Virus record (IMG/VR): IMGVR_UViG_3300034418_007243
Coordinates: 32,001-96,000 of that record
Length of the DNA stretch: 64,000 nucleotides
Reading direction: 5' to 3' (one strand)
DNA from: a virus
Shown here piece after piece: positions 3,734-59,538 of this stretch. The notes under the pieces were generated by a model. It was given only the letters and a program-made list of their open reading frames with translations, had not been told where the DNA came from and ran no database searches. Both the position numbers and the translations under genes were made by a program. The first letter of the stretch is position 1. Every line of letters begins with the position of its first letter.

Positions 3734-3793
3734 ACCTGAAAAGTGTTTATTTGTAAAACAAAGAAAAATTGAGTATATTATATATGTAATGAT

Positions 3794-29400: not shown

Positions 29401-31553
29401 ATAAATTAGGAATGTTCTTTTCTTTAGAAGAGCTAGAAAATTTAGAACAACAAATGAAAGATGGTGTTCTTACTTTAGAAAGCTTTCCTAAAACATTTTA
29501 TTATACAAATGTAGATACTGTAGAAGATGAAAAGCTTTCAAGTCTTCAAGTACAAAGAAATACAGAGGACTATCAAAAAGCTATTGCGCTAGTTAAAAAA
29601 TATTTTCCTCACATAACTGGAATTCCTATAGAGCAAGAAACTATAGTTGATCCTTACTCAGCTTCAGTAAGATTAAAGCTTAAAGATGATAATAGAACTT
29701 TTGAAGATTTAGCAAAACAATTTGGTTTTGAAAATAAAGAAAAGGTTCCTTTAAAAGATGTTTTACAAGCTATTATAGATAGCAAATATGCAACAGCTCA
29801 AGAAAAACTTTTAGCTTCTCAATTATTAACATTAGCTAGTGATACAGAAACAATTACTTTTGCTACTAATATGGCTATGCCGGGTGAATATTCTGAAAGT
29901 TTACAAACTAGAATAGATCCTAGATATTCAGCAAGTAATTATGCTAAATCAAAGAAAAAATTAAGAACAGAAGATTTTGGTGTTTTTGAATATGAAGGAG
30001 CAGATTTACCTATAGAAGTTACCATTCTAAGATATGAATTAGAAAGAAGAGTTTTTGAATCTTTAAATACTAATACACAGTTTTCTGAAAATATTAATGA
30101 GTTAATGAAACTTGCTGACGCTAGGTTTACAGAAATGGCTAACGCTGATGTAAATAGTGTAAATTTTGCAATATTTCCTTTCTTACAAGATAAAGCTGCT
30201 TTTATACAAGGAGCAATGACTAGCAGAGATTTTCAAAAATTTTTAGCATCTATTCCTTATAAAAGCACAAAAGAACAAAAAAATAGTTGGCAAAAGTTTG
30301 TTGACTTTGTTATAGATTCAATTAAACAAACGCTAGGTGGAAAGCCCAATGGTTCTGCTCTTAATGAAGCTCTTACTCTTATTACATCTGAGATAGGTAT
30401 TATAGAAGAAGAAAAAGCTGCTCCTGTTACAGGAGAAACAAAAGCAGAAGAAGCAGTTATTATAGAAGGTCCTATTTCTATTACAAATAATCCAAAGAGC
30501 ATGTGGTCTGAGCATAAAGAATTTATGACTCAGATGGTTAATTTATTTAAACAACAGAGTAAAGAACAAGAAGCTAAAGGAGAAACACCGCTTGGTAGAT
30601 TTACAGATAAAAATGGAAATAATTTATCAGATTATGCAATCTTAACAACTACTCAATTTAAAACCTGGTGGAATAAAAACTTTAATGCTGCTAAAGATGA
30701 GGCTATAAATAACTATAATACTCAATTAAAAGAAGCAGTAGAATTAGAAGAACTTGAAAGTAAACAACAAGAAGAACCTACTCCTAAATCAGAGCAAAGA
30801 AAAAGTAGAAAGGATGATATTAAGACTAGGGAGATGGTAAACAAACTATTAGGATTACGGTTTACAAGACCTCAGATTGCAGCCATGAGTGTTGATGATG
30901 CTATTAAATTTATAGAAGATAACATTCCTTACCCTGAACTAGTAAAAAGAAGAGAAGAAAAAGAAAGATTAGAAGAATTAAAAGCTAAACAGAAAAAACA
31001 AGAAGCTGTACAAAACATTATTGATAAATTTAATAGTGTTACAAGCTTAGATGAATTAACATCAGTGTATGATACAATTTTAAATGCTATTGAAGAAAAT
31101 GATAAAAACATTGTTGAAGCACAAAAAGATGTAAATATAGAACAATTACGTTTAGAAACTCTAAAAAGATTGGCTGAAGAAGTAAGCTTTGATCAATTAA
31201 AAATTGGTAAAGCAATGCGTCTTAAAAAGAATAAAAATGCTTATATTATAGAGGTAAGTGAAGATGGTAAAACATATACTGCTCAATATGATGATGGCAC
31301 TTCCAATACTGTAGAAATTACAGAAGACAATATAAAAGATTTAGTTCAAGCATTTTATAGTGAAGCTTATGAACAGACAAATGAAGTTGAATCAGAAATT
31401 ACTGAAGATGAAGAAAAAGTTTTATCTGAATCTAAAGAAATATTTGATAATTCATCTGAAGGTATAAAAGAAGCTATGGATTCTGCTAAGAAGCTTGGCA
31501 AAGAACAAGCTAGAAAAAACTTTTTAGACGCAATAAATAATAGATGTAAATAA
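26463..31553 (+). CDS. Large ejection (pilot-like) protein with degenerate zincin-like domain
   Basis: 1696 aa; Ala/Gly-rich hydrophobic helices, EGALEGG and EGLQETAQE..GFLMGG motifs, long coiled coils; ends in RCK. Confidence 0.6.
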   Translation: MANGDPTQDMSITPPGLSEGPVDLSAGVPMNTLPQNLEAPRVEDYYPDRFKQDPIASLPPTPEKVNALIDNFVYNTEAKENPLKATSVLGNFHTSDYGQNQFMDRYYNHNKFSELGFSPFLDNETRYNEASSGWDEFERAFGQWTNLSGVAFSDAMSFGDSLTDRKNAEQFKRVMDIGSSTDTGKFATNLFLNSGYTMGIMAELIAEEVVLGATTAALGISSPITGGATAGAAAVTAATMAERARRGFGKITHAWDAMKNVGKTLSSFKDVNKAREYFTSAGKATGRFLNPLENTARFLKQKKSIAGIHEGTKLAKLKTATSGFAEFYKDVRNVRLAFGEGALEGGMVENEMIDHLTKDWLDKHPGQKMSDSAAQAIRNAARDAGVTTTLTNTPVILLSNKIVLDGILRPGQFSKKIIGEVIETGGKKLLFNPRKGVKDVYSILPKGFINKTWAYAKDPRLALSAAATGVIKYSSANFAEGLQETAQEIISGTNEDYYTAQYKGDVTKGGYYSFVAQNVNKQFSPEGFEIFASGFLMGGIAGPISNIAGRTMSTATELFDPNSDLRIRGFKIGEKEDGTGKYITGGFLGKALGIGTGTQEQISAAEKLDRKRKDALDDVVNTLNEFYDINKKQYLNPELENLLSQKQLNSLMQKAQEEGDVKAYNDFKDTSGFKHVITALKYGRLGTHIQQLKELKNLTEEEIKQQYGISKTKFDASIDNAVERAERIQYRYDKAKELFPNPYNPQNYRGNEAFLMLIGEKAWNDAVEEFIFNQDSFDNAVKRTEKILSKAKDKAKLKNTSFSKFEALFSLSKTQAEINTLKQEIEALEESGVKKTDPKLRSLKKQKEYLERFADAMEQTKIERAESKTESITPKTKKKAERAFKLYVNLLAVESGDFVANEDLTDVFEDLLDYAALSERKQKAMDAANLLTNPQAFFERVERNKEINSKIFANKKAEIKESLEQYLKAMDKNEMLQELHKLGMFFSLEELENLEQQMKDGVLTLESFPKTFYYTNVDTVEDEKLSSLQVQRNTEDYQKAIALVKKYFPHITGIPIEQETIVDPYSASVRLKLKDDNRTFEDLAKQFGFENKEKVPLKDVLQAIIDSKYATAQEKLLASQLLTLASDTETITFATNMAMPGEYSESLQTRIDPRYSASNYAKSKKKLRTEDFGVFEYEGADLPIEVTILRYELERRVFESLNTNTQFSENINELMKLADARFTEMANADVNSVNFAIFPFLQDKAAFIQGAMTSRDFQKFLASIPYKSTKEQKNSWQKFVDFVIDSIKQTLGGKPNGSALNEALTLITSEIGIIEEEKAAPVTGETKAEEAVIIEGPISITNNPKSMWSEHKEFMTQMVNLFKQQSKEQEAKGETPLGRFTDKNGNNLSDYAILTTTQFKTWWNKNFNAAKDEAINNYNTQLKEAVELEELESKQQEEPTPKSEQRKSRKDDIKTREMVNKLLGLRFTRPQIAAMSVDDAIKFIEDNIPYPELVKRREEKERLEELKAKQKKQEAVQNIIDKFNSVTSLDELTSVYDTILNAIEENDKNIVEAQKDVNIEQLRLETLKRLAEEVSFDQLKIGKAMRLKKNKNAYIIEVSEDGKTYTAQYDDGTSNTVEITEDNIKDLVQAFYSEAYEQTNEVESEITEDEEKVLSESKEIFDNSSEGIKEAMDSAKKLGKEQARKNFLDAINNRCK

Positions 31554-34500
31554 TGAGATGTCCACTTAATCCAGATATAGATTTACAAGCATTTAGAGTA
31601 GCTGTATTTGCAGATATGTATGATATGGCAGAAAGCCCTGAAGCTTTTGATGTTGATCAATACATGCAAGAAATGTATGAATTAGTTTTTGAAAACACTA
31701 AAGATCCTGCATTAGCTCTAGATTATGCGCGTTTTATACCTGAAACTACTCTTAGTCTTTTAAATACAGATAAAAAACTTAGTGGCAAATTAATGAATGA
31801 GAAAGGTTTAAACCTAAATTCTCTAATGCAAAAAGTTATTGATATAAGTAACTATAATAAAGATCAATTAAAAGTTCTTAATAATCAGTTAGCTGGTAAA
31901 GTATCTTTAAAAGATACAGCAAAAAAAGGAAAAGAAGTTGCAAAGCGTAAAAACCAAGAAAAGAAAAATGAAAATCAGTTATCACTATTTGATCCTGAAA
32001 TAATAGAAGAAGCAGCTAAAGAAGAACCTTTACCTACATTAACACCTTCTTTGTCACCAACACTTGTTGAGGAAGCAAAAGGTATATTAGATGCACAAGG
32101 TTCTGATGAAATGATTTATCCTCTTACAGCTTTTGCAACAAGAAATGTTGATAGACCAACAAAACATTCAAAGTTTATATCTGCTGTTCAAAAACAATTG
32201 CTAAGATTATTTAAAGAAAATAAAACAAATAATATTTTTTTAGCAGCTGTACCTACTAGTGAAATTATAGCAAATCTTGAAAATAAAGATAGTGTTTACT
32301 ATAATTTTTTCAGAAGTATGGATGCTGCAGAACAACAAAGTTTTATAGAAAATGATAATGGTTTAGGTGTTATATTAGTTGTAACAGATCAAGCAGGTCT
32401 ACCTATAACATTTAATGATCAAGGATTGCAGTCTAAAGAAGACTTATCTTCCCCAGCTTTTCTATTTTTAAATAGTCCAAAGTTTGATACTAAAGGACAA
32501 ATTAAACTTAGTGAAAATGATATTGCAGCAATTGAAGAAATAAAACAAGTTTACAAAAAACATAATCAACCAGAGCTTGCAAAAAAAGCTGAACAGTTTT
32601 ATATAGAACAGCTTAAGTCTATTAATAAAATTAGAGAATATGTTAGAGCTAACCCTAAAGAATCTGTTAAGTTTACAATTAACGGAGGATTTTTAGGAGC
32701 TTATCAAAAGTCTTCTATAAAAAATAAACAACCTCTTGCTGGTTTAGAAGAGACTATAAATTTACAAAGAGGAAAGTATAATAGCATGTATTTTACTTCA
32801 TCAGATTTGGGAGGTAAAACTATAGTGCTTGAAAGACCTACTTTGTCTGAGGCTGATATGTTAGAAGATATACTTAGTCTTTTAGTGGATGATATAACTT
32901 TAAATGGTAAACCTATATCTTCTACTGAGCGTAAGAATTTATTCTTCCAATTTTATTATAGCAAAAAAGAAACAGTTCAGCTTGCATCAGAAAATGGAAA
33001 AGCTGTTTTGTATTTTAAATATAAAGCTATTCAACTTGATCAATTAAATGATCAACAAAAACAAACTTTAAAAGAAGAACTTAGAAATTATTTTACAGAA
33101 ATAAATGATAAAGGTTATCCTGAACAACATACTTATTTAAAAAGTTCTCCGCAAAGTGCAAATAAACAAATTAGTGATATCAGTATTGAAAACGGAGTTC
33201 TTACATTAACTAATAAACCCTATGAACAGTTTGTTAAAGAAAAGTTTTATAGCCTATATAAAGTAGAAAATGGAAGATTTGCTACATCAAATCCATATAT
33301 CACATTTGAATTAGCACCTGAAAGTGAAGGTCAAGTTTTTTTAGAAAATAAAAAAACACAAGAAGAATTAATAAATGAATTATTAACTGTTGCAGAAGAA
33401 ATTGAAGAAATTCAAAATAGAATAGATGAACGTCTTTCTATAAAAAAAGATACTCAAAAATCAAGCATTAAAGAACAAGGAAAGTTGTTTAGAATTTTTG
33501 AAAAAGCTTTTTATGAAGGAAATAATAAAAGACATAATGATATATCTAATGAACAACTTCAACAACTATCTCCAGAAACAAAAGCTTATTTAATAGACTT
33601 ATATGAAAGAGCAAAACCTTTTAATGAAGAATATCAAAGAATAGGTAAAGTAAGAGATGTTCAAACCAACAAAGAAATAATAACAGATGAAGATAAAATA
33701 AGATATATAACAGCAAATCATTTTGGTGGTTTTGGTAGAGCTGCTAGGTTAGGTTCTGCTGCTGATTATGTGTTTAGGCAAGACCCTAAGTATAAAGATT
33801 TAATCTTTGCTATTCCATCTCAAGATGTTTTAAATAATATAAATAAGGTTTTCAATGCGAAGCTTACAAGTGAAGAGTTAAATATTGGCAGTGTAAAAGA
33901 AGAACAAGTAAAAGAAGAACCTAAAAAACCAACTCCTTCTTATTCATCAAGATTAGCAGATTTTGACACAAAGTTAGATAAAACACTTAAAGTAAAAGGT
34001 TTAGATGTAAAAGCAACAAAACAACAAATAAAAGAAGCTAAAAAGTGGTATGAAAAAAGTGCTATAAGTCAATTTTTTAAGTTTGAAGAAATTTTTGATA
34101 TGGTTAATACTGATGATGGTTCAGCTGTAGCAAGATGGACATTAGCAGGTATTACACTTTACAAAGGTTCTGATTACTCTGATTTATATCATGAGGCTTG
34201 GCATGCTTTTACACAGACATTCATGAATTCTTTACAAAGACAAGAATTATATGAAAAATTAAAAACTAAATCAGGAACTTTTACAGACCATCTTGGTCAA
34301 ACAGTAACGTTTAAAGATGCTAGTGATTTACAATTAGAAGAACATCTTGCAGAACAGTTTAGAGAGTATATGCTGAATCCTTCTAGTAAGAAAATTACTA
34401 AAGAAGAAAAGTCTTTATTTAGAAGAGTTTTACAAGCTCTTAGAAAATTATTTGGTGATAGAGAACTTGATTTAGAAATTACAAACTTAGAAGCTGATTT

Positions 34501-37500
34501 ATTTGTTCAGGATATCTTTGAAAAGCTCCGTATTGGTAAATTATATGAATATACTTTTGATATAGAAAATTTTGCTTTTCCCTCTTTGGATAAAGGAGGA
34601 GTTAAAGCATTGCAAGGAAGTACTGGAGTTCAACAATTAAACTATAACAATACTATGAAAATGGTTGGTGTTATAGATTCTCTTATTTCAGAATGGATAG
34701 ATTTAAAAAATGCTGCTTTAAATAGAGATCAAATAGATGCTTTATTTGATATTAATGATGAAATAGATAAAGCTGGTGAAAATATTAAACGTATTGAAGA
34801 GTTAGAAAAACAAAAAGAAGAACTTCTAACACTAGCTAGACAACAAATAAAAGCTACATATAAATATACTTCTGCAGTAACTAAAGATCCAAATGCGCTT
34901 TTAGCTGCTTATAATCATGCAGCTTATAGAATAGCAAGAATTATAAGTAATAAACAAGCTCTTTATGCAGCAACAGAAAACATTGTAGAAAAAGAAAAAT
35001 TAAAAAAACAATTAGATCTTCTAGAATGGTCACTAAAAAACTTTGGTAATTTAGAAAACATTAAACATGTAACTAACAGGCCTGGTGAAAATAGTAGAGG
35101 TCTTATTTCTATGCATATAGAAAGATCTGCTACGTTTTTTAATCAAGATGTTAAAGTTTCTCTTGATTTTGAAAATGTAACTGAAGAACAACTTTTACAA
35201 GGAAAGTTATTTGAAAAAACAGGCAATGACTTATCTATGGTAGAAATTGCTAAGCCTGAAGTTATATTCTTTCTAAAGCAATTATATTCTTATAACAAAG
35301 AAGGTTTAGTTGAAAGAGATGATTTTGGTTTACCTAAACAAGCTGATTTTGGTCAAACCTGGAATAAACTTGCAAGGCTTTTAGTAAATACGCCTAACAT
35401 TGATCAGATGTATCTAAAGCTACAAGCAGCATCTGTAAAAGATCCTCAGATAAAACAATTACTAAGTAAACTAGGAAGAACTAACACTGACTCTAATTTA
35501 ACTCAAAGTTTAATAAGTAATTTCTTTAATACTTTTGGCATGGCTAATGTGCCTCTAATACAAACTACTATTAGAAAAGTTACTAAACAAAATCCAGATG
35601 GAACAACATCAACACAGACTATAGCTAGTACAGGTAGAGCTTTTAATTCAAACAATAAAATAGCTAAAGATTGGGAAAGACAATTTAAAGAACCCAGTCA
35701 TAAAAGCAAATATATAAAGAGAGATGAAAAAGGTAGTTACTTAGATGTTGATGCCTTCTTAAATGATTACAATTATGCAAAAGCTAAAGGTAACCTTTGG
35801 CAGTTTTATAATGATTTAGGTATTCTATTATCTGATAATGAAGATTTAAAAACAGAACTGCAAGATCCTAACAATAAAAAACTTTACTCAGATAAAGTAA
35901 GTTTTATTTTTACAACTCTAAAGAAAAACTATCAAGAAAAAAATAAAAGATTAGCTGATTTAAATGAATTAGCTAAATCTGAAAGTGTTATCTATAATAA
36001 TCTTATAAATTTAGAATCTAAGTATTCTAATGTGTTTACAGATTTTATGGTTACCAATGCTGAAGGTAATGCTCAGTTTGAACACACACTTAATAATACT
36101 ATTACTATGATGGTTAATGGTATTAATAATGTAGAAAATTATTTGGATATATTAGCTATACCACATTTAGCTCATCTAAATGTTGATTTAAATCCTTTTG
36201 CTGAATCTTCTATGTGGTTAAAAAGCATGTTTAATTTAGAAGGTACAGCAGATACAAATCCTAAGTATGGTGAAAGAAGAAAAGATACTTATGGTAATGA
36301 TATAAAATTAGAAGTTGTAAACTTAAGTGGTATTATAACTCTTGAAGGAGAAGAAAAAACTCAAGAAGGTATAGCTAGTGCTAGAGCAGATGAATTTACT
36401 AAGTTTATTCTTGATATGCATTTAGGTTATGATAATAGCTTTGAATTAATGCGTCATGCTGATAAATCAACTTCTTATGGTATTAGATTAACTGGTGAAA
36501 CTTTAGGAAGCAAAAGTAGAAGAGATTCTTATTTATCTCCTCAAACATTTAAAAAAGATAATGTTCAAGTAGCTTTTGATATTAAAAATAGAATTGTTCC
36601 TTATTTAATAGCGGAACTTAAAAGAATGAGAATAGCTAGAACAGCTCTCAAAGATAATATAAAAGATTTTGATTTTGCTTATTTAGAAAGAGGTAAAGAC
36701 TTTGTAATATTTTCAGGTTATCTAAGTGCAGATACTCAAGCTTTGTTAGAAAAAGAAATTGTAAAAAATGAATCTCTAGCTTTAGAAGATTTTGCAGAAG
36801 CTATTAGTAATGATATATTTGAAAAGGAAATATTAAAAGATACTAGATCTTATTTTAATAAACAGTATGTTAAAGTAGATAAACTTTTTAAAGCAACAGA
36901 TGAATTTATCTCAGATAATATTGTTAAAAACTTTATTGGTAAAAGTAATATAACTAAAGACGAAGCTAAAAAAGCTATATTACAATCACAAATAGTCAAT
37001 TCTTTTATAAATAATTTAGAGAGCATGTCTTTTATATACGGAGACATTGCTCAGTATAAATTAGACAAAGAAGACTTTCACAAACGTAATGCTGGTGCTG
37101 GTTCAACAGGTAAATTATTCCGTACAGATAAAGGTATGCAAGATTTTATTAACGGAAGAATAAATCAAACTTATGCTGCTAAATTAAAAAATGAACTAGG
37201 TCTTGCAAGTTTAAGAACTTATGATGGCACATTTAATACAGCTGTTATATCAGATAATAAAATACCTAGTGTTTATGCAGAACTAAGACAATTAGGAGAA
37301 GCATATAATGAAATGGAAGAAGCTGATGGTCAAGGTATTATTGCTTTTGATTCATATAGAACTTTAAAAATAGCAGAAGGTTCTTGGCTTCCAGAACAAG
37401 AAGCTTTATATCAAGATATTATAAATGAAAGAGAAATAGACGAAACTAAAATTCAATACTATTTTCCTGCATATAAAACACAATACTGGGGACCTTTAAA

Positions 37501-40500
37501 AACAGATTTAGAAAGAATTGGATTACCTGTAACAGCTTTTCATAAATTTTCTTTATATCCAGCAATACCTAATGTTATTAAAGGTAAAAACATGGAGATT
37601 CTTCATAAAAGAATGATTCAAGAAGGTATTGATTATGTAGTATTTAAATCAGGTTCTAAGGTAGGTACTGTAACAGAAACTCAAAGCGGTACAAAACAAG
37701 TTTATAAAAAAGATTCAAGAGAGCTTGTCTTTGATAACAATTATGATCCTAGTAAAGATAAACCTTTCTTTACTAAAAATGTGATCTTTTTAGAGTACTT
37801 AAAAAATCAATTAGAAATAAATGATAAAGCTAAAGGTCAAACAATTTTCTCTACTCAGTTAAGAAAATTAGTTATAGATGGTCTTATGGAGTTTGGTGTA
37901 CCTGTTGATTATAAAACAAATATAAAAGATCCAGAAAAAAGAATTAAAGCTTGGGAAAATGAAAAGAATAAAGAAGATAGCTCTCCTTATTATAAATTAA
38001 TTAGAAATTATGAGCAAACTATTGAAGCTTTAACAAAGCTTGAAAAAGATAAACTTCTTAAAGAATTAAATTGGACAGAAAATGAAGATGGTACTTTATC
38101 TGGTGATAAAAAGAAACTAATAGACTTTGTTGTTAGAGAATTATCTAGAAAAGAATTAGGAGAACATGAGTTAGAATATTTACTTAAGGGAGGAGATCTT
38201 TCTTTATCTCTTAATGCTGCTGACGTAGAAAAAATGCTAAATGCTATAGTTGTTAAAAAACTAGTAAAGCAAAAAGTAAATGGAGAAGCTTTAATTCAGG
38301 TTGCTAATACCTTTATGGAAGATGCAGTAAAAGCTAAAGGTTTAAAGTTTAAAAATCCTACTAAAAAACAAATTGAAGAGTTTGGGTCTAATGATCTACC
38401 TTTTTATACTAAAAATAAAGATGGGTCTACAAATGCTATGAAAGTTAAGGTAGCATTACAGAATGACTTTAAAAACTTACTCTTTTTAAAACATAATGAT
38501 GGGCAAGAAATAGGTAGTATAGAGAGACTTAATGAAATGATTAAAGATGAAGAGTGGTTAAATAAAGGTGATCATAGAAAGATGATTACTATGACTGCTG
38601 TTCGTATTCCTGTTCAGGGTCTTAACTCTATGGAGTTTATGGAAGTTTATGAGTTTTTACCTGCTTCTGCAAGCGGTACTATTATACTTCCCTCAGAGAT
38701 TGTAGCTAAGTCTGGTGCTGACTTTGATATAGATAAGTTAACAGTTATGATGCCTAATATTAAGGCTAAAGTAACAAAAGAAAATAAAGATAAAATCTTT
38801 TGGAAAGAGTTAGCTCAAGAGTTTCCTGATTTAGATTTTAGTTATAATAATGTGCAAATGATATTTGACGCATTAAAATCTCCAGAAACATACAAATTTT
38901 TAAATGAAGAAGATATAGCTGTAGCAAATGCTATTAAATCAAAAGCAAATGTAGTAACAGCTGAATATTCTACAGGTGATAATAAATCAGGTCTTGAAAA
39001 TAAATTATTAGAAAGCATTGTATCTATACTTTCTTTACCTGTTAACCGTGAAGCTTTACTTACACCAAATAGCACAGCTCTATTTACAGAAGGTAAAAAT
39101 GAAGGAGATAAATCATTGGTTGATGCTTTAGCAAAAGATGAAGAGTATAATGGAACTACTACTTTTGAAATTGCATATAATTTAAAGAAACACCAGGAAA
39201 ATAGTATTGGTAAAGCAGCTCTTGGTTTGGGTGCTGTAGATAATACCTATAATACTTTAATGAATAGAGTTGGTGCTTATCTTAATAAAGAAGTAGGTTC
39301 TACAGAAGAAGAATTTATTCAATCAATATTTGGTAAAATTCCTGAAAGTGAACAAAAATATTACCAGGCTGTAAGAAAAAACTTTAGAAGACAAAAAATA
39401 TTTTTGCCTCATAATACAATTGATGGCAATATATCTTTATCACATTCTACTAGTAAAGGAAGTAATCAATCTATCTCAGGTGTAATTAATCAAATGATTA
39501 ATGGATGGGTAGATGTTGCTAGAGGAGCTTGGATTTTTAATGTACAAGGAAATAAAGAAGTAGCACCTACACTTTTATTTATGATTCAAGCAGGTGTTCC
39601 AGTTGATACAGCTGTATATTTTGTGTCTAATCCATTAGTAAAAGAATATGTAAATCAGATTAGAAAAGCTCAAAGTCCTTTTGCTGAGTATATGAATATG
39701 GATCTTGAGAACCCTAATGCTTTTAAAGCAGCAGCTTTAAGAAATATTTTTACTAATCCTGAGTTTGGTTTTAGATTGCCTTATAAGATGAACGGGGTTT
39801 TTCAAAAGGAAACTGATATGTCTAATATTAACCCTATGCTAAATCAGATGAATATTAGTCGTTTAGCTAGAGTGTTAGCTGTTCAAAATGTCAACAAACA
39901 ATTCAATACTGAAACATTAAAAGAAAGAGCTGAAAATTATAAAGAAGGTGATCCTATTACTGAAGCTGACAGAGATGCTTTCTTACACTTTTTGGAGTTA
40001 GAAGAAATGGGTAAAGGGGTAAGAGATATCAAAATGAATATGAATTTTGATACAAACCCTGATCAATCTTTATATGCAGCAGAAGCAAGAATAAAAAGAA
40101 AAGGTTCTCTTGAATATGATAACAGATTTCCTTCATTTATAATTGAAAAATTAGAAAATGAATCTCCTATATCAGCATTTTATACGCAACCTTTTCAAAT
40201 AAAATTAATAGGAGGTTTATTTCCTTTAAGAAATCATAAACGCATTAATAAGTTTATAGATGATGTAGAGCTAGATGAAATAAAAAGAAATGGATGGAAT
40301 GATAGAGAATCTTTTGCTAAAGATTTTAAAAATGAATTTATTAATTTTATTTATCAAAATGAGCTAAGAAATTTTGATGTAAGAAAACTATCTAAACCAA
40401 CAACTAATACTTTTAATGGCTTTGAAATAGAAAGAGTAAATGTAGCTTCTTTAAAACATGGAGCAGCTTTTAAAGATGGTAAACTTTTTATAAGCATGAC

Positions 40501-43500
40501 TGATTTAGCAAGACAGTATGCAAGCATAACAAAAAAGTATAACGATCTTCCTATAAGTGAAACCTTAGCTGCAAAATTACAGAAAGATTATCAACAAACA
40601 GGATTAGCTCCTATATCTCCATTACAGTTTAGAAACTTTGAAGAATATGTAGAGTTTGTTATAGAAAGAGAAAGATTACGTTCTGTATTATCAACTGAAA
40701 AAATAAATAATAATTTACAATATCAATTTTTATTAGAAGAGATAAAAGATTATTATGAAAATAATACTTATGGAAAAGCTAAAATAGCTAATTATTCTCC
40801 AGAAGTTAAAGAAAGATTTATTGTAAACTATGCTAAAGAAACTTTTCTAAAAAATAAAGCTTTGCAAAACATATATAACAATGACTATATGTTTAAAAAT
40901 ACAGGGCAAAATTTATTTCAAAAATCATATGCTGATAGATTTTTAGATTTAAACAACTTACGTTTTCCACAATTAAAAAATGAATTTCTTCTACTAAATT
41001 ATCTTGAGTATGTAGAGTCACCTACAGGATATAGAAATTTAAAACTTAGCAATCCTAAATTAACAGCAGATCAGAAAAATGTTTTCTTTGAAAATTTAGA
41101 AGATTTAACTGATGAAAAAACTCTTAAAGAAAAGTTTCCTTCATTAGAAGACAATGAAATAAAATATATCATAGACTTTTTTAATGAGTTTAGTCTTTAT
41201 GCTTATTTACAAACCGGGTTAAATACAAAATCTTCTTTCAATTTATCTAGTATAGTAGATCCTGAAGAATTTACTATTATAGCTGAAGAAGCTAAAGCTA
41301 AAGCTCTTAATATATTGAATTCAGAATCTATTTATTCTGAAGAGCTTTTACAAGATTTTTACAGAGTCTTTAATAGAACTAATGGTAATAAAGGTAGAGC
41401 TGTAAAAGGTAGAGGTGTTAACTATAAAATTCAAGGTACAATCTTTACAGAAAAAGGATTAGAATATTTAAAAATAACTCCAAAAACAAAATCTTTTGTT
41501 GAAGATGTAGAATTAATTGAAACTCAACCTATAGTACAAAGTACACGTAAAACATACTCAGGAAAAGTAACTAGCTTACAACCTAATCAAATATTTGTAT
41601 TTGGTTCTAACCCGCTTGGTATTAATGGAAACCCTGCTAAAGGTACAGGTGGAGGAGCACTAGTAGCATATCAAATTGCTGGAGTGAAGCAAGGAGAAAA
41701 AATGGATAATAAACTTTCTGATTCTGGAAAGGCTTGGGGAATAACAACGGTTACAGCTCCTGGTAAGAAAAAAAGTAAAACTCCACAGCAAATTATAGAA
41801 GGTATTAAAAAACTATATGAATATGCTAACAATAATCCTAGAATAGAAGTATTAGTAGCTGATTATTCTGGACCAAGAAATCTTAATGGTTATACAGGTC
41901 AAGAAATGGCAGATATGTTTTCTAATGCAGGACCTATACCGTCTAATATAGTATTTAATGAGAATTTTGATAAGTTAATTGCTACTCAACCTACAGTACA
42001 AAGTGTTACTACTCCTAAAAATAGATTTACAGTAAAACCAAAACAGGCTGCTGACAAGAAGGCTAAAGTTAAAGCCAAAATTGCTACTCAGTATATAGGT
42101 TTTGCTGAAGGTATTTTTGGAAGCAGTACAGCTTTATATGCAGAGCAGATTGGTCAGTATGCTAATACTGGTAACTATAGTTCTGATGATGTAATATTTG
42201 TATCAATACCTGGTAAAAGAGGTAGTGCAGAATTGCAAAAACAAAATCAAGATAGAACCATAAAAGAAGCTATTAAAGCTGTAGAAGCAGGAGCTACTAT
42301 TATTACAGATAATAAAGCTTATATTGATTCTAGCTCTTACAATACAGGAGAAAAAAGATTGTTTGCTAATATGCAAGAAAAAGGATATACTTATTCTGAA
42401 GTAACGGTAGATGGTCAAATTTTAGGTACTTGGTCTAAACCTACTCAACCACAAGACAGCAATCCTAATATAGTTAAGAATAGTAATGGATTGATTGTTA
42501 TTAAAGACCAGTTAAATAATGAAGAAGGTGCAGCTATGGTAGAAAGTTTTAAACCTGTTATAGAAGAAACATCTTTTAAACAAACTGGAGGCTCTGTTTC
42601 ATGGGGTTTTGGTTTACAATGGATGAGGGTAAATAGTATGTCTACTGAACAACGTAAAGGTTTAATAATAGGTAAACAACTTAACGGTAAAGAGATTACT
42701 CAAGAAATGAAAGATAAATTCATTAACGGTGCTGATGCTCAACAATTAGGTATGCCTTTATACGGATATACAAGTATAGATAAGAATGGTAATCCTCTTC
42801 CTAATATACCTACTGAAATTATAACAATGTTGGCTCAAAAAGGTATAGATATATCTGAGTATGATGCTAGTTATAATTCTGTTTATGATAAAAAAGATGG
42901 TGGTAGTCTTATTATTCATCAGGATAATACTGAGCTAAATGAATCACCTATAATAACTATCTCTTTAGGTAGACCTATGAAGTTTATAACTTATGAGTTA
43001 AATGATCCTAATGATTTTAACATAACTGATCCTAAAAATACAGCTTATAATATAGTAAAAAATGTAATAAGCGGGCAAGCTTTAAAAAATAAAATTATAG
43101 ATAAACCTTTTAAATATGGAGAATTAACACCAGGAAATATAATGGATTATGCTAAACAGCTAGATAAAATTGAAGGTGGTGATAAATATTCACAACAAGT
43201 TTTAGATGCTCTTAAAGCTCAGTTTAAAGGAAAGGCTACTACTACAGAATATACTTTGGAGAATGGAGCTATATTAGTTTTTTCAGGTAATAATAGAAAT
43301 GTGTTGCATGAAATAGTATTTGATGAAGCTAGTGATAAAAAACCAATGCCAGAAGGTTTTCCTGAATTAACAGTAACTAAAAATAGATATGATAAGAAAA
43401 CAGATTCTTTTCTTCCTGTACAAGTAAAAACAGATAACTATAGAGTTGTTCTTACTTTAAGAAAAGTACAAGGAACTACAGTAAATAATATAGATACAGC

Positions 43501-44149
43501 TATGTTAGAAAATACTGTAAAAACACCAGCTGAAAGCAAAGCAACTGAAGGTAAATATCAACCTGCAAAAGATGTATTTGATATTGATAGCGCTCTTGTA
43601 ATAGAAGGAATAGAGCAAAATCCTGATGTTATTTTTGTTTATGAAGGAGCAGAAACAGAAGGTCTTGGAACTGGTCAAGGTGAAGGTGCAAAACATAAAA
43701 AAATAAAAAATGTTAGCACAAACAATGTATTACCTCTTACAGTGAATAGAAATTATGCTCTTCAAAATACTTTTAAAGATGTTAAAGATGAAGCTGGTAA
43801 TATGGTTATAGATCCTAAACTTAAAGAACTAATAGATAATGATATACAAACACTATTAGCTTATGGTGATAGACCTATCAGATTTAGTAGTAAAGGTTAT
43901 GGTAAAGAGTTAATTAAACAAGATAAAAAAAGAAATACTCCTATGCCTGCACCACAAGCTTTTATATATTTGTCAGAGCAATTACTAGAAAAATTTGGTT
44001 ATATTAATCCTGGCTTTTTAAGTTTAGATATGTCTGGAAATAAACCAGGTATTGAAGCAGTACAAGAAGCTCAAGAAATATCTGATGCAGAAATAAAAGA
44101 ATTGAATAGAGAAGCTGTATTAGATTTAATTAAACTGTGTAAATCATAA
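31553..44149 (+). CDS. Virion-associated DNA-dependent RNA polymerase (crAss/phi14:2 gp66-like) with zincin and accessory domains
   Basis: Catalytic GADFDIDKL (DFDID at 38720-38734) preceded by RIPVQG (38603); ADGQG and TQLRK motifs; HEAWH..EE.LAE zincin at 34190; accessory domains after 41550. Confidence 0.9.
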   Translation: MRCPLNPDIDLQAFRVAVFADMYDMAESPEAFDVDQYMQEMYELVFENTKDPALALDYARFIPETTLSLLNTDKKLSGKLMNEKGLNLNSLMQKVIDISNYNKDQLKVLNNQLAGKVSLKDTAKKGKEVAKRKNQEKKNENQLSLFDPEIIEEAAKEEPLPTLTPSLSPTLVEEAKGILDAQGSDEMIYPLTAFATRNVDRPTKHSKFISAVQKQLLRLFKENKTNNIFLAAVPTSEIIANLENKDSVYYNFFRSMDAAEQQSFIENDNGLGVILVVTDQAGLPITFNDQGLQSKEDLSSPAFLFLNSPKFDTKGQIKLSENDIAAIEEIKQVYKKHNQPELAKKAEQFYIEQLKSINKIREYVRANPKESVKFTINGGFLGAYQKSSIKNKQPLAGLEETINLQRGKYNSMYFTSSDLGGKTIVLERPTLSEADMLEDILSLLVDDITLNGKPISSTERKNLFFQFYYSKKETVQLASENGKAVLYFKYKAIQLDQLNDQQKQTLKEELRNYFTEINDKGYPEQHTYLKSSPQSANKQISDISIENGVLTLTNKPYEQFVKEKFYSLYKVENGRFATSNPYITFELAPESEGQVFLENKKTQEELINELLTVAEEIEEIQNRIDERLSIKKDTQKSSIKEQGKLFRIFEKAFYEGNNKRHNDISNEQLQQLSPETKAYLIDLYERAKPFNEEYQRIGKVRDVQTNKEIITDEDKIRYITANHFGGFGRAARLGSAADYVFRQDPKYKDLIFAIPSQDVLNNINKVFNAKLTSEELNIGSVKEEQVKEEPKKPTPSYSSRLADFDTKLDKTLKVKGLDVKATKQQIKEAKKWYEKSAISQFFKFEEIFDMVNTDDGSAVARWTLAGITLYKGSDYSDLYHEAWHAFTQTFMNSLQRQELYEKLKTKSGTFTDHLGQTVTFKDASDLQLEEHLAEQFREYMLNPSSKKITKEEKSLFRRVLQALRKLFGDRELDLEITNLEADLFVQDIFEKLRIGKLYEYTFDIENFAFPSLDKGGVKALQGSTGVQQLNYNNTMKMVGVIDSLISEWIDLKNAALNRDQIDALFDINDEIDKAGENIKRIEELEKQKEELLTLARQQIKATYKYTSAVTKDPNALLAAYNHAAYRIARIISNKQALYAATENIVEKEKLKKQLDLLEWSLKNFGNLENIKHVTNRPGENSRGLISMHIERSATFFNQDVKVSLDFENVTEEQLLQGKLFEKTGNDLSMVEIAKPEVIFFLKQLYSYNKEGLVERDDFGLPKQADFGQTWNKLARLLVNTPNIDQMYLKLQAASVKDPQIKQLLSKLGRTNTDSNLTQSLISNFFNTFGMANVPLIQTTIRKVTKQNPDGTTSTQTIASTGRAFNSNNKIAKDWERQFKEPSHKSKYIKRDEKGSYLDVDAFLNDYNYAKAKGNLWQFYNDLGILLSDNEDLKTELQDPNNKKLYSDKVSFIFTTLKKNYQEKNKRLADLNELAKSESVIYNNLINLESKYSNVFTDFMVTNAEGNAQFEHTLNNTITMMVNGINNVENYLDILAIPHLAHLNVDLNPFAESSMWLKSMFNLEGTADTNPKYGERRKDTYGNDIKLEVVNLSGIITLEGEEKTQEGIASARADEFTKFILDMHLGYDNSFELMRHADKSTSYGIRLTGETLGSKSRRDSYLSPQTFKKDNVQVAFDIKNRIVPYLIAELKRMRIARTALKDNIKDFDFAYLERGKDFVIFSGYLSADTQALLEKEIVKNESLALEDFAEAISNDIFEKEILKDTRSYFNKQYVKVDKLFKATDEFISDNIVKNFIGKSNITKDEAKKAILQSQIVNSFINNLESMSFIYGDIAQYKLDKEDFHKRNAGAGSTGKLFRTDKGMQDFINGRINQTYAAKLKNELGLASLRTYDGTFNTAVISDNKIPSVYAELRQLGEAYNEMEEADGQGIIAFDSYRTLKIAEGSWLPEQEALYQDIINEREIDETKIQYYFPAYKTQYWGPLKTDLERIGLPVTAFHKFSLYPAIPNVIKGKNMEILHKRMIQEGIDYVVFKSGSKVGTVTETQSGTKQVYKKDSRELVFDNNYDPSKDKPFFTKNVIFLEYLKNQLEINDKAKGQTIFSTQLRKLVIDGLMEFGVPVDYKTNIKDPEKRIKAWENEKNKEDSSPYYKLIRNYEQTIEALTKLEKDKLLKELNWTENEDGTLSGDKKKLIDFVVRELSRKELGEHELEYLLKGGDLSLSLNAADVEKMLNAIVVKKLVKQKVNGEALIQVANTFMEDAVKAKGLKFKNPTKKQIEEFGSNDLPFYTKNKDGSTNAMKVKVALQNDFKNLLFLKHNDGQEIGSIERLNEMIKDEEWLNKGDHRKMITMTAVRIPVQGLNSMEFMEVYEFLPASASGTIILPSEIVAKSGADFDIDKLTVMMPNIKAKVTKENKDKIFWKELAQEFPDLDFSYNNVQMIFDALKSPETYKFLNEEDIAVANAIKSKANVVTAEYSTGDNKSGLENKLLESIVSILSLPVNREALLTPNSTALFTEGKNEGDKSLVDALAKDEEYNGTTTFEIAYNLKKHQENSIGKAALGLGAVDNTYNTLMNRVGAYLNKEVGSTEEEFIQSIFGKIPESEQKYYQAVRKNFRRQKIFLPHNTIDGNISLSHSTSKGSNQSISGVINQMINGWVDVARGAWIFNVQGNKEVAPTLLFMIQAGVPVDTAVYFVSNPLVKEYVNQIRKAQSPFAEYMNMDLENPNAFKAAALRNIFTNPEFGFRLPYKMNGVFQKETDMSNINPMLNQMNISRLARVLAVQNVNKQFNTETLKERAENYKEGDPITEADRDAFLHFLELEEMGKGVRDIKMNMNFDTNPDQSLYAAEARIKRKGSLEYDNRFPSFIIEKLENESPISAFYTQPFQIKLIGGLFPLRNHKRINKFIDDVELDEIKRNGWNDRESFAKDFKNEFINFIYQNELRNFDVRKLSKPTTNTFNGFEIERVNVASLKHGAAFKDGKLFISMTDLARQYASITKKYNDLPISETLAAKLQKDYQQTGLAPISPLQFRNFEEYVEFVIERERLRSVLSTEKINNNLQYQFLLEEIKDYYENNTYGKAKIANYSPEVKERFIVNYAKETFLKNKALQNIYNNDYMFKNTGQNLFQKSYADRFLDLNNLRFPQLKNEFLLLNYLEYVESPTGYRNLKLSNPKLTADQKNVFFENLEDLTDEKTLKEKFPSLEDNEIKYIIDFFNEFSLYAYLQTGLNTKSSFNLSSIVDPEEFTIIAEEAKAKALNILNSESIYSEELLQDFYRVFNRTNGNKGRAVKGRGVNYKIQGTIFTEKGLEYLKITPKTKSFVEDVELIETQPIVQSTRKTYSGKVTSLQPNQIFVFGSNPLGINGNPAKGTGGGALVAYQIAGVKQGEKMDNKLSDSGKAWGITTVTAPGKKKSKTPQQIIEGIKKLYEYANNNPRIEVLVADYSGPRNLNGYTGQEMADMFSNAGPIPSNIVFNENFDKLIATQPTVQSVTTPKNRFTVKPKQAADKKAKVKAKIATQYIGFAEGIFGSSTALYAEQIGQYANTGNYSSDDVIFVSIPGKRGSAELQKQNQDRTIKEAIKAVEAGATIITDNKAYIDSSSYNTGEKRLFANMQEKGYTYSEVTVDGQILGTWSKPTQPQDSNPNIVKNSNGLIVIKDQLNNEEGAAMVESFKPVIEETSFKQTGGSVSWGFGLQWMRVNSMSTEQRKGLIIGKQLNGKEITQEMKDKFINGADAQQLGMPLYGYTSIDKNGNPLPNIPTEIITMLAQKGIDISEYDASYNSVYDKKDGGSLIIHQDNTELNESPIITISLGRPMKFITYELNDPNDFNITDPKNTAYNIVKNVISGQALKNKIIDKPFKYGELTPGNIMDYAKQLDKIEGGDKYSQQVLDALKAQFKGKATTTEYTLENGAILVFSGNNRNVLHEIVFDEASDKKPMPEGFPELTVTKNRYDKKTDSFLPVQVKTDNYRVVLTLRKVQGTTVNNIDTAMLENTVKTPAESKATEGKYQPAKDVFDIDSALVIEGIEQNPDVIFVYEGAETEGLGTGQGEGAKHKKIKNVSTNNVLPLTVNRNYALQNTFKDVKDEAGNMVIDPKLKELIDNDIQTLLAYGDRPIRFSSKGYGKELIKQDKKRNTPMPAPQAFIYLSEQLLEKFGYINPGFLSLDMSGNKPGIEAVQEAQEISDAEIKELNREAVLDLIKLCKS
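41522..42004 (+). repeat. 21-bp direct repeats (41522-41542, 41984-42004) inside the vRNAP gene
   Basis: ACTCAACCTATAGTACAAAGT vs ACTCAACCTACAGTACAAAGT (1 mismatch); partial third copy ACTCAACC at 42443. Confidence 0.8.
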
Positions 44150-50140: not shown

Positions 50141-50878
50141 TTACTTATCAAATTTAGTTAAGTTATATTTTTTTATAATGCTTCTAAGTTTGCACTGATA
50201 GCAACTATTCATACAGCTTGTAGCATAAAGATACTTTCCTTTAGCTCTAAATTTTTTAGATTGTTCTACTGTACTGCCACCACATAAAGCTTTAATCCAA
50301 GATTTAACTGTAGGTTTTCCTTTTATTCTAGGAGCATATACTCTTGTTAAAAGAGATACATGACTTCTTAGCGAAAACCAATGAGATTTAAATTTAGTAA
50401 ACTTATCATCTAGATTATCATCAGCTGCTACTAAATATCCTAACTCCTGACCACGGTACTTATGACCAAAAAGATTATTGCCTTCTACGGCTAATCTTGA
50501 TATACCAAAGTTACTTTCTAATATGGCCTGTGCTATTACAATACTAGGTTTTATTTTAGGATAAGACTTGACTTCTTTCTGTGTAGCTTCACCTATAAAA
50601 TTAATGAACTCTTGAATATGTATTTCTTTCCAAGTTTTAAATCTTGATCTTACAATATAATCATTATACTTTATATGTTCTCCTCTCCATTCAGAAGCAG
50701 TTAACCATTTTCTATTTACTGGTAATGCAAAAAGATTGTACTCTGTATCTTTGCTGACATCATATCTGCCAGCATAAACTTCAGTACCAAAATCTTCTTT
50801 AACTTCTTTTTTATTAGTTGATATAAAATTTAAACTAAATAAGTATATAGCTATAGTAGCTAAAAACTTCTTAGTCAT
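50141..50878 (-). CDS. Glucosaminidase (GH73/FlgJ-like) peptidoglycan hydrolase with N-terminal hydrophobic segment
   Basis: IAQAILESNFG.S.LA..GNNLFG.K, F.KF.S, YATS..Y motifs. Confidence 0.85.
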   Translation of the reverse strand: MTKKFLATIAIYLFSLNFISTNKKEVKEDFGTEVYAGRYDVSKDTEYNLFALPVNRKWLTASEWRGEHIKYNDYIVRSRFKTWKEIHIQEFINFIGEATQKEVKSYPKIKPSIVIAQAILESNFGISRLAVEGNNLFGHKYRGQELGYLVAADDNLDDKFTKFKSHWFSLRSHVSLLTRVYAPRIKGKPTVKSWIKALCGGSTVEQSKKFRAKGKYLYATSCMNSCYQCKLRSIIKKYNLTKFDK

Positions 50879-51158: not shown

Positions 51159-51461
51159 CTAATCTTTAACAAATTGTCCATCAACCATTTTACCTGTTCT
51201 ATCTTTAATAGTATGCCAGGCTGATTCAAGACAATCTTCAAGGTTCATATCTTGCATGTGAGCTTGTATCAATAGTGTTACCATTATATCTCCAAGCGCA
51301 TCTTTAATTTCTTCTTTGTCATCTGTTATTATAGCATGACATAGTTCTGATAATTCTTCTACAGTTTTCATAGCTTGTGCATAAGGTTTAGGATCTTTTA
51401 GTATTCCTTTTTCTTCTGCCCATGCTATAATCAAACATTCTAATTCATAATAGTCCATCAT
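51159..51461 (-). CDS. MazG-like nucleotide pyrophosphohydrolase
   Basis: WAEEKGI..Q..KT.EELSEL..EIKDALGD..VTL..CLE.AW..IKDRTGKMVDGQFVK. Confidence 0.85.
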   Translation of the reverse strand: MMDYYELECLIIAWAEEKGILKDPKPYAQAMKTVEELSELCHAIITDDKEEIKDALGDIMVTLLIQAHMQDMNLEDCLESAWHTIKDRTGKMVDGQFVKD

Positions 51462-51503: not shown

Positions 51504-52337
51504 TTAAAAAATATATCTTATAGTATTTAAAGGAAAATACTGACTATATATCTTTTTAAATTTATCAATATATTTAGTTTTATTTTTTATTGGATAACGC
51601 ATTACTCCTGATTGATTTTTTATTTCATTAGAAAACCTCATAAGTTCTCTAGCTTCTGGAGATGCTTTTTGCATTTGTAATGGATGATTAGTTAATGCTA
51701 TTACCTCACATTTATTTACACCAGCTAGTTCTTTTACATTACAAAATAAGTCATCATACTCATATGTCCAGCCTGGTACAAATATTACTGGGCTATAGTT
51801 TATATGTACTTCCCATCCTAAATCAATTAATCTATCTATATCATATATTCTAGATATAATTTTTTGCATTTTAGGTTCTAGAATATCTGAATATACTTGA
51901 GGCATTAAACTAACTCTTACTCTTGGTTTTTTGTTAAAGTTATTTACATTAAGTTTCAACAGACCAGGGTATTTAGTAGCCATTGTTGTATTTAATCTTG
52001 GATGATCATCATACCGTTTAAGATAATTATATAAAGATTCAGGAAGATGTTTTTGCATAAGTACAAGATCTGTGTTACATGCAATATCTACCATAGTATA
52101 TACAGGGTCCTGTTGATCTGGTACTTTTGTATAACCTTTTTCCCACTCTACTACAGATTGAAATATGTCATCTACATTAGTATTTACAAATACTCTTTTA
52201 CCATTATACCTAGACATGTAACAGTAAGTATCAACACAACCTCCGTAACAACCATATATTAGATTGGGTGCTATACAATTAGCACTATTATTATTTGGTT
52301 TTGTTATTAAAGTTTTTGTTTTTTGAGTTTTTATCAT
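51504..52337 (-). CDS. Spore photoproduct lyase (SplB)-like radical SAM protein
   Basis: APNLIYGCYGGCVDTYCY Cys cluster, then C.TDL, ATKY, RVRVSLMPQ..LEP..R, G.EVHINYSPVI as in the SPL family. Confidence 0.75.
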   Translation of the reverse strand: MIKTQKTKTLITKPNNNSANCIAPNLIYGCYGGCVDTYCYMSRYNGKRVFVNTNVDDIFQSVVEWEKGYTKVPDQQDPVYTMVDIACNTDLVLMQKHLPESLYNYLKRYDDHPRLNTTMATKYPGLLKLNVNNFNKKPRVRVSLMPQVYSDILEPKMQKIISRIYDIDRLIDLGWEVHINYSPVIFVPGWTYEYDDLFCNVKELAGVNKCEVIALTNHPLQMQKASPEARELMRFSNEIKNQSGVMRYPIKNKTKYIDKFKKIYSQYFPLNTIRYIF

Positions 52338-58506: not shown

Positions 58507-59538
58507 TTATAGTTTAACATTAGATAAAGCAAATGCTTTAGGAAGCTTAAACTCTTTACTTTGAAAATGATACTCTGCATCTTCAAAAGTATTAAGCATC
58601 ATAGCATCCCACTTTTTAAAAGTATCATCTGATACATTAAAAGAATATAGTTGATCATACTTATCAAATACTATAAAATTAAAATTTATAATCCAACCTG
58701 CATTAACTACATCAGATAAAAAGTCTTTTACTAGTTTTTTGTAAATGCTGGCTTGTAACCAATAGTTCCAATAATCTACAGACTCTTCAAACTTTTGTAT
58801 AGACTTGCTGGTTGTTTTAAAATCATTTATTGTAACTACTTGATTTACTACATCAACAACAAGATTATCAATTATACCTTTTAAACCAAAAGAATATTTA
58901 TCATTTGGTAAACTCATTGACAATTCTAATTCATTATAGACTCCAATTTTTGTACCATCATGTTGTAAATCTAAACCTATAAGATTTCTTGTTTTTTCAT
59001 CTGCTTTTATGATCTCAGCTCTTCTTGAACATCTATCTAATATAGCAGCATCTATTATAGTTCTGTTTTCTTTTATCTTAAGAAACTCAAAGTAATCTAT
59101 ACCTTTTACATCTGCTATTTTTTCAATTCTTTTAGAATCTTCTTTTAGTCTTTGATGTAAATTCTTTTCTTCAAGTTGTTTTAGAATGACAGATTCATAA
59201 TCTCTTAATGATTTAGAAGGATCAGGATCTAATTCATATTCTTTAAAGACATTGTTAATAATTTCTATAGAACTTTCGCTTGGCAAAGATTGCGGAGCTA
59301 CAATAAATTTGCTGTCAAAATCTAAACCATCAAGCACTAAGTAATGTATAACAATTCCCTCTAGTAAATACTTAGCAATTTTCTCCTCTTTATCTTTAAG
59401 AACATATTCTTTATAAAATCTTTGAGGAGATTCAAGCAGCTTATTTAAGCTGCTATAACTAAAATTAAATTCTTTGTTGAAGAATTCTGTCTCTAACATG
59501 TTTTTGTCAACTGTATTGACTGTATTTGTATTAATCAT
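58507..59538 (-). CDS. PD-(D/E)XK exonuclease (RecB/Cas4-like superfamily)
   Basis: FSYSSL..., E, LKGIIDNL, INDFKTT, YWLQASIY. Confidence 0.8.
   Translation of the reverse strand: MINTNTVNTVDKNMLETEFFNKEFNFSYSSLNKLLESPQRFYKEYVLKDKEEKIAKYLLEGIVIHYLVLDGLDFDSKFIVAPQSLPSESSIEIINNVFKEYELDPDPSKSLRDYESVILKQLEEKNLHQRLKEDSKRIEKIADVKGIDYFEFLKIKENRTIIDAAILDRCSRRAEIIKADEKTRNLIGLDLQHDGTKIGVYNELELSMSLPNDKYSFGLKGIIDNLVVDVVNQVVTINDFKTTSKSIQKFEESVDYWNYWLQASIYKKLVKDFLSDVVNAGWIINFNFIVFDKYDQLYSFNVSDDTFKKWDAMMLNTFEDAEYHFQSKEFKLPKAFALSNVKL

Follow-up and report, generated by a model that had tools for sequence, protein, structure and literature searches.

An AlkB-type 2-oxoglutarate (2OG)/Fe(II) dioxygenase domain was found inside P0001, a giant predicted virion RNA polymerase (vRNAP) of a crAss-like phage (IMG/VR record IMGVR_UViG_3300034418_007243). 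The window, by which we mean the whole 64-kb stretch of DNA analysed, corresponds to bases 32001-96000 of this virus record, which is complete (109,874 bp) and has direct terminal repeats, and coordinates are given as positions in the window. Judging from sequence, predicted fold and the behaviour of homologous polymerases, we consider it fairly probable that the AlkB cassette is delivered with the genome and would demethylate 1-methyladenine/3-methylcytosine (1mA/3mC)-type lesions on single-stranded template DNA or early RNA before phage expression.

Identification of the AlkB domain and its active site

The Crassvirus muzzle family PF25731 was found in the open reading frame (ORF) at 7958-12919, with a run of giant ORFs downstream of it. 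The ORF encoding P0001 belongs to this block, and its features are listed here together with those of the AlkB domain (nt, nucleotides; aa, amino acids).

31553-44149, + strand: giant ORF encoding P0001, 4198 aa, uninterrupted; the largest in the giant-ORF block downstream of the muzzle gene
37112-38854, + strand: RNA polymerase (RNAP) core segment, residues ~1854-2434, matching g066/gp66 of Cellulophaga phage phi14:2 (tblastn, E 1e-15)
38720-38734, + strand: DFDID metal-binding motif of the two-barrel RNAP, residues 2390-2394
42437-43519, + strand: AlkB-type 2OG/Fe(II) dioxygenase domain (cassette 3), residues ~3629-3989, with TQP linker 3 before it; structural core residues 3637-3975, nt 42461-43477
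42860-42886, + strand: YDASYNSVY, in-frame motif
42917-42925, + strand: HxD iron ligands (HQD), H3789 (nt 42917) and D3791, aligning with AlkB H131/D133
42947-42970, + strand: PIITISLG, in-frame motif
43016-43243, + strand: basic three-helix insertion, residues ~3822-3897, after the ISLG strand; left unaligned to AlkB by hhalign, helical in the AlphaFold2 model
43256-43288, + strand: LENGAILVFSG, in-frame motif
43307-43309, + strand: distal iron-ligand His, H3919, aligning with AlkB H187
43439-43462, + strand: YRVVLTLR, in-frame motif
43442-43462, + strand: RxxxxxR 2OG-binding motif, R3964 (nt 43442), T3968 and R3970, aligning with AlkB R204/T208/R210

In a tblastn search of GenBank phage records, residues 1500-3100 of P0001 matched 91 records. 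The phi14:2 gene g066 is annotated as 'catalytic RNA polymerase subunit', and many of the Bacteroides crAss matches as 'putative RNA polymerase'. The metal-binding DFDID motif is known from crAss vRNAPs (bioRxiv 10.1101/2020.03.07.982082). Because of the gp66-type core matches and the DFDID motif, P0001 is, by its sequence, a vRNAP homologue, in agreement with a first-pass annotation of the DNA letters that had named the virion RNA polymerase as the protein carrying the AlkB domain.

Over the entire P0001 the sole Pfam match was PF13532 (2OG-FeII_Oxy_2, AlkB family), with 34.2 bits against a gathering cut-off of 31.2, and with 39.4 bits in the genome search. Single-sequence phmmer searches of the PDB sequences with the domain, the full P0001 or the core gave nothing useful, and only the family profile reached AlkB. 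This profile was built from 18 domain sequences, namely the window, one IMG/VR locus, 11 of the 12 JGI metagenome loci and five protein fragments. Its top match in the PDB was E. coli AlkB (E 5e-10), with rice ALKBH1 next, and hhalign against E. coli K-12 AlkB gave a probability of 98% (E 3e-13). The identity with E. coli AlkB was only ~22%, and the cut-off of the E. coli-type AlkB equivalog NF011930 (NCBIfam) was not reached. As this score lay far under the cut-off (13.6 versus 267 bits), the domain is classed by sequence as a member of the AlkB superfamily and not as an orthologue of E. coli AlkB.

All the motifs on which the first-pass annotation had based its AlkB assignment were found in frame in ORF 31553-44149 at the positions it had given, and such a set of AlkB-type motifs is, as a sequence signature, well beyond chance. 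The HxD and distal His residues align column for column with AlkB H131/D133/H187, as do the arginines with R204/R210, both in the sequence alignment and in hhalign. The extent proposed for the domain (42480-43470) was right in its location and not in its start, since the conserved unit runs from ~42437-42461 to ~43477-43519. Likewise, an insertion after ISLG exists as three helices, and its length is ~76-85 aa, not the ~90 aa proposed.

The AlphaFold2 model of the domain had a predicted local distance difference test score (pLDDT) of 85.8 and a predicted template modelling score of 0.83. The best Foldseek matches in the PDB were all E. coli AlkB (2FD8, 3BI3 and 4NID among the AlkB structures; E 1e-8). 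With VIA-align the model superposed on E. coli AlkB with a Z of 19.0 and a root-mean-square deviation of 2.4 Å over 189 of 203 residues, covering AlkB residues 12-214 including the N-terminal lid. Rice ALKBH1 followed with a Z of 18.3, ABH2/ABH3 with ~14 and ALKBH5 with ~13. The predicted fold is thus the AlkB-type double-stranded beta-helix with the AlkB-specific N-terminal nucleotide-recognition lid, and the family assignment agrees between Pfam, the PDB profile, hhalign and the structural match. The viral structural neighbours in BFVD included the Grapevine virus T replicase and the polyproteins of Little cherry virus 2 and grapevine leafroll-associated virus 3 (GLRaV-3), which bears out the earlier remark that AlkB is fused to the replicases of some plant RNA viruses, as well as stand-alone phage AlkB-like models.

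Next, the active site was compared in an alignment that comprised E. coli AlkB, 25 relatives from this clade and seven sequences from other clades. The identity range of the relatives was 35-98%. The iron ligands (H3789, D3791, H3919) and the 2OG site (R3964, T3968, R3970 and Y3778, the latter corresponding to AlkB Y122) were invariant in 25/25 relatives, as were the equivalents of the AlkB lid tyrosines Y76 and Y78, of E136 and of R183. Because the active site is invariant across this range while the surrounding sequence diverges, the conservation of the catalytic residues appears to reflect selection for catalysis.

Three insertions relative to AlkB were observed, the first in the N-terminal lid region and the third a beta-hairpin between the distal His and the RxxxxxR motif; neither of these two smaller ones had been noted in the first-pass annotation. 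The second, the three-helix insertion, has an isoelectric point of 9.4 as compared to 5.7 for the entire domain; P0024/P0025 have a shorter version of it and the other AlkB clades none. In AlkB-DNA structures the R161 loop touches the DNA backbone, and we take the site of this loop to be occupied here by the helices. As the insertion would replace this DNA-backbone-contacting loop, it probably retunes substrate binding.

Cassette architecture and distribution among relatives

The closest AlkB-less vRNAP is P0048 (3391 aa), in which P0001 residues 1-3304 and 3999-4197 have collinear counterparts. Only ~19 residues separate these two segments in P0048, and it lacks all three of the cassettes listed in this section; P0001 residues ~3305-3998 were therefore inserted into a framework that is conserved. 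The segments on either side (3100-3334 and 3990-4198) are shared by ~100 homologues. Within the insertion the three cassettes stand in train with a TQP linker before each (residues 3324, 3478 and 3631), and the AlkB cassette is located ~200 aa upstream of the P0001 C-terminus. The first-pass annotation had described the domain as fused to the vRNAP; the two do share one ORF, and the arrangement is no simple terminal fusion but an internal cassette of a recombining array.

41522-41530, + strand: TQP linker 1, residues 3324-3326, the upstream boundary of the train; homology to P0002 stops at residue 3325
41555-41992, + strand: cassette 1, A1S_2505/DUF7831-like, residues 3335-3480, ending in TQP linker 2 (3478-3480)
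41993-42436, + strand: cassette 2, a small alpha/beta domain, residues 3481-3628; AlphaFold2 pLDDT 75.9
residues 3631-3633, + strand: TQP linker 3, preceding the AlkB domain
43520-44146, + strand: conserved C-terminal module of the vRNAP framework, residues 3990-4198; it forms the C-terminus of ~97 homologues, including AlkB-less ones, and is collinear with the P0048 C-terminus

Cassette 1 matched phrog_2072 (E 7e-15) and, just under the cut-off of 45, NCBIfam NF049995 (42.6 bits). Its nearest Atlas clusters belong to the A1S_2505 family and it contains an IFVFGSN motif; no evidence was found for its identity as a macrodomain. DUF7831 is the commonest accessory domain among the vRNAP homologues. 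For the fold of cassette 2 there was no convincing match (best VIA Z 5.9, Foldseek E > 0.03, with generic Rossmann-like rows). Copies of this cassette were seen in 24 giant vRNAPs and reach ~89% identity even where the proteins differ in the rest of their sequence. In this biased set its neighbour is frequently an AlkB-like domain, of one clade or another; that cassette 2 and AlkB are functionally linked was considered and not established, the co-occurrence in the unbiased 120-protein set being 3 versus ~1 expected. The C-terminal module had no usable match in the Atlas.

P0002 is 95-97% identical to P0001 elsewhere, and the sequences are unrelated exactly between the first and third TQP linkers (window 41522-42451). 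The AlkB domain is kept in P0002 at 98% identity despite its replaced neighbours. This sequence pattern indicates that cassettes 1 and 2 were recently replaced by recombination at the TQP linkers in one protein relative to the other, and it is supported by these comparisons that the accessory domains are swappable cassettes in a conserved vRNAP framework.

The genomic context of the relatives was taken from IMG/VR and JGI loci. About 25 giant proteins of 2457-6047 aa carry this AlkB clade, nearly all with D[FY]DxD, and the domain sits N- or C-terminal of the RNAP core depending on the relative. Among vRNAPs, the AlkB-like domains fall into at least four sequence clades. A survey of vRNAP homologues for such fusions, as had been suggested, found that they recur, with an AlkB-like domain in 12 (~10%) of the 120 homologue clusters that matched the vRNAP core best; DUF7831, NADAR and SF1-helicase cassettes were commoner than AlkB in the same 120 clusters. 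Companion domains identified with Pfam in the relatives were NADAR, an AAA_30/PIF1-type SF1 helicase, SprT-like, ART-PolyVal and cpYpsA, and AlkB is paired with the SF1 helicase in some of them.

The domain had no match among 50,697 GenBank phage records by megablast or tblastn, and it was unmatched in all the 91 GenBank phage records with a vRNAP homologue, which are mostly from gut samples. The phage DNA itself was detected in runs that carry the labels freshwater, lagoon, estuary and marine metagenome. Such aquatic sources would suit an enzyme that needs O2, as would the lack of the domain in gut crAss records. A word-index search for stand-alone relatives of comparable length returned two fragments only.

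Some further observations were made on these proteins. A second AlkB-like clade (P0027-P0032 and P0034) has Thr at the R204 position (YTITLTFRR) and is without the helical insertion, and may have atypical cofactor binding. P0040, a protein of 1446 aa on a 226-kb contig, carries the same AlkB clade as P0001 without the RNAP motif and could be a split accessory ORF or belong to a different, larger phage. The N-terminal part of P0001 contains a zincin-like HEAWH (HExxH) motif at 34190-34204 (+ strand) without a Pfam match, which could be a candidate autoprocessing peptidase of the polyvalent-protein type.

Proposed role and alternative explanations

Lesions of the 1mA/3mC type arise mainly in single strands and block polymerases. 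The companion cassettes NADAR, SprT-like, SF1 helicase and ART-PolyVal are other nucleic-acid repair or modification enzymes, which we count as support for a role of the AlkB domain in demethylation. We also count as support the spore-photoproduct-lyase homologue of the phage, which is a further enzyme of direct reversal, the pairing of AlkB with an SF1 helicase in some relatives, the retention of AlkB in P0002 and the recurrence of AlkB-like domains in vRNAPs. The homologous gp66 of phi14:2 is responsible for early-gene transcription, has to be translocated along with the DNA and shows a strong preference for ssDNA or denatured templates (bioRxiv 10.1101/2020.03.07.982082). The RNAP proteins of crAss001 were detected in virions and have been modelled as ejected partially unfolded, refolding in the cytoplasm (PMC10172136). 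By analogy with these homologues, P0001 would be loaded into the virion and reach the host by ejection, either together with the DNA or before it. After ejection it would refold, with Fe(II), 2OG and O2 supplied by the host cytoplasm, and the AlkB module would oxidatively strip 1mA/3mC-type N-methyl lesions from single-stranded nucleic acid. The likeliest substrates would be the unwound phage template of this RNAP class, given its single-strand preference, or the nascent early RNA, and demethylation would be timed before the expression of any phage gene. Tethering to the polymerase, or release by a protease, could place the few enzyme copies where a blocking lesion matters.

Several points weigh against this proposal. 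Packaging, ejection, refolding and activity of this phage's protein are read from its homologues and from residue conservation, and function is transferred on profile and fold similarity at ~22% identity. In this clade AlkB N120 is replaced by Ser, N206 by Val and the substrate-contacting D135 by Thr, and given the three insertions the substrate could differ from 1mA/3mC. An exhaustive phmmer search of 1.84 billion representatives gave 17 matches (giant proteins, short-contig fragments and one spurious fish epiplakin), with no cellular AlkB close to the clade. In addition, AlkB appears dispensable for vRNAP function, because only ~10% of the near vRNAP homologues have an AlkB-like domain. Finally, the contrast between aquatic and gut sources is confounded by phylogeny and database content.

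The best-surviving alternative, which we still regard as unlikely, is that the enzyme acts in counter-defence and erases enzymatic methyl groups rather than random lesions. Its targets would be N6-methyladenine (6mA) of the phage that attracts methylation-dependent restriction, protective marks on the host DNA, or base methylation inflicted by toxins, in parallel to NADAR cassettes that possibly reverse defence-inflicted ADP-ribosylation. The alternative cassettes (NADAR, ART-PolyVal, SprT-like, helicase) are typical conflict modules, and a resetting of methyl marks has been proposed for the sporadic AlkB genes of jumbo phages (Iyer et al. 2021, PMC7824862). The D135 to Thr replacement also fits an eraser, as does the fact that rice ALKBH1 is structurally almost as near as E. 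coli AlkB (Z 18.3 versus 19.0). Three major DNA methyltransferase Pfam families (PF01555, PF02086, PF00145) are absent from the phage genome, so that any marks would be host-derived; a DNA methyltransferase of the phage's own, which was considered as the source of lesions, finds no support in the same result. One fragment, P0038, has a methylase together with a partial AlkB on a 1.3-kb contig that may be chimeric. However, the few injected copies would need to outpace a restriction enzyme at many sites, there was no match to a PADLOC family, and the overall best structural and sequence match is a repair enzyme, E. coli AlkB. To our knowledge, no host defence that methylates N1 of adenine or N3 of cytosine in phage DNA has been described.

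AlkB-family enzymes also act on RNA, and E. coli AlkB strips 1-methyladenosine (m1A), 3-methylcytidine (m3C) and 1-methylguanosine (m1G) from tRNA in vitro. An RNA-directed enzyme could demethylate host tRNA or rRNA (m1A, m1G, m3C) and in this way remodel translation, or it could act on phage transcripts only. The RNA-acting AlkB domains of plant-virus replicases are among the structural neighbours, and the domain is tethered to an RNA-producing enzyme. Nevertheless, we find this quite improbable: the closest structural matches are DNA-repair AlkB, the companion cassettes point mostly to DNA transactions, and nothing in the sequence distinguishes a preference for RNA from one for DNA. That the domain is a catalytically irrelevant passenger (a spacer with a role in structure or packaging, or a cassette in decay that recombination has carried along) would fit the free gain, loss and swapping of the accessory cassettes and the lack of the domain in most vRNAP homologues, but is highly improbable in view of metal and 2OG residues that are invariant in 25/25 relatives down to 35% identity, of the 98% identity that the domain retains in P0001 and P0002 despite their exchanged neighbouring cassettes, and of a confident and complete AlphaFold2 model.

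Returning to lesion repair by an injected enzyme, a broader interpretation would make the whole accessory array of environmental crAss-like vRNAPs an injected base-damage reversal kit for ssDNA, with AlkB, NADAR, SprT-like and helicase cassettes as interchangeable answers to host defences that modify the incoming DNA of the phage, or would see in it polymerase-tethered, transcription-coupled direct reversal. We hold this to be decidedly unlikely. If it were true, the kit's proposed roles would be demethylation by AlkB, de-ADP-ribosylation by NADAR and removal of protein adducts by the SprT-like domain, and the AlkB cassette would hint at an as yet undiscovered defence in which the nucleic acid of phages is methylated.

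Should the domain prove active and be delivered as proposed, a direct-repair enzyme would work before phage gene expression, preloaded in the capsid and joined to the first polymerase that reads the genome. Besides transcription and host takeover, virion cargo would then also serve to maintain the genome or to erase chemical marks. The divergent, compact AlkB clade with its new basic insertion is offered to enzymology. Furthermore, the TQP-bounded cassettes suggest a natural plug-in site in crAss-like vRNAPs and could map the needs of the first minute of infection, and the aquatic carriers versus gut non-carriers provide a testable ecological hypothesis on O2 dependence.

Other genes were observed on the opposite strand of the window. 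By its family match, the first of them would give the phage, whose host presumably does not form spores, a second DNA repair enzyme of the direct-reversal kind; the others are in an opposite-strand module.

51504-52337, - strand: spore-photoproduct-lyase homologue, 277 aa (PF20903, 52 bits versus a cut-off of 27)
51159-51461, - strand: MazG-like pyrophosphohydrolase
50141-50878, - strand: glucosaminidase (lysin-like)
58507-59538, - strand: PD-(D/E)XK nuclease

Comparison with known systems

P0001 shares with the crAss-like vRNAPs (phi14:2 gp66; crAss001 gp47/gp49/gp50) the DFDID motif, the core homology and the position after the muzzle and cargo genes, and it is nearly twice as long as phi14:2 gp66. 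One annotated vRNAP relative in the GenBank set has a DUF1768/NADAR domain in place of AlkB. In our searches no literature was found linking crAss/Crassvirales vRNAPs with AlkB or a dioxygenase, although an earlier mention is possible (e.g. in Yutin et al. 2018). The automatic JGI annotation already labels some of the giant proteins as 'alkylated DNA repair dioxygenase AlkB'.

With E. coli AlkB the phage domain has in common the whole-domain fold with its lid, the iron triad and the equivalents of R204/T208/R210, Y122, Y76/Y78 and E136. E. coli AlkB is a free enzyme of 216 aa belonging to the Ada regulon, whereas the phage domain is embedded in a predicted virion protein of 4198 aa. In the replicases of plant RNA viruses (flexiviruses, closteroviruses, ampeloviruses) an AlkB fold is likewise covalently joined to the polymerase or replicase machinery, and these domains are thought to repair the viral genome. 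Their structural match to the phage domain was weaker than that of E. coli AlkB (Foldseek E 1e-5 to 1e-4 versus 1e-8). The replicases of plant RNA viruses are RNA-dependent and made after entry, whereas the AlkB domain of P0001 is joined to the DNA-templated two-barrel RNAP of a dsDNA phage, a polymerase predicted to be pre-made and packaged.

AlkB-family dioxygenase genes that stand alone and are sporadically distributed have been described in jumbo phages (PMC7824862). Those are separate genes expressed after infection, in contrast to the present domain, whose protein is predicted to be injected. The polyvalent proteins described by Iyer et al. (2017, PMC5512222) are likewise giant and multidomain, with shuffled enzymatic cassettes, and are delivered together with DNA, as is predicted for P0001. 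Because several unrelated enzymatic domains are found in variable order within very large vRNAP proteins, P0001 and its relatives are assigned, by their domain content, to the polyvalent proteins in this sense. The scaffold here differs in being the crAss-type vRNAP itself, with the cassettes internal at TQP linkers, and AlkB, 2OG and dioxygenase domains are mentioned nowhere in that work (0 occurrences; Iyer et al. 2017, PMC5512222). Viral replicase-AlkB fusions, stand-alone phage AlkBs and polyvalent proteins are thus already known; what appears to be new is a divergent AlkB clade with new insertions, carried as an internal cassette of a DNA-templated RNAP that is predicted to be injected.

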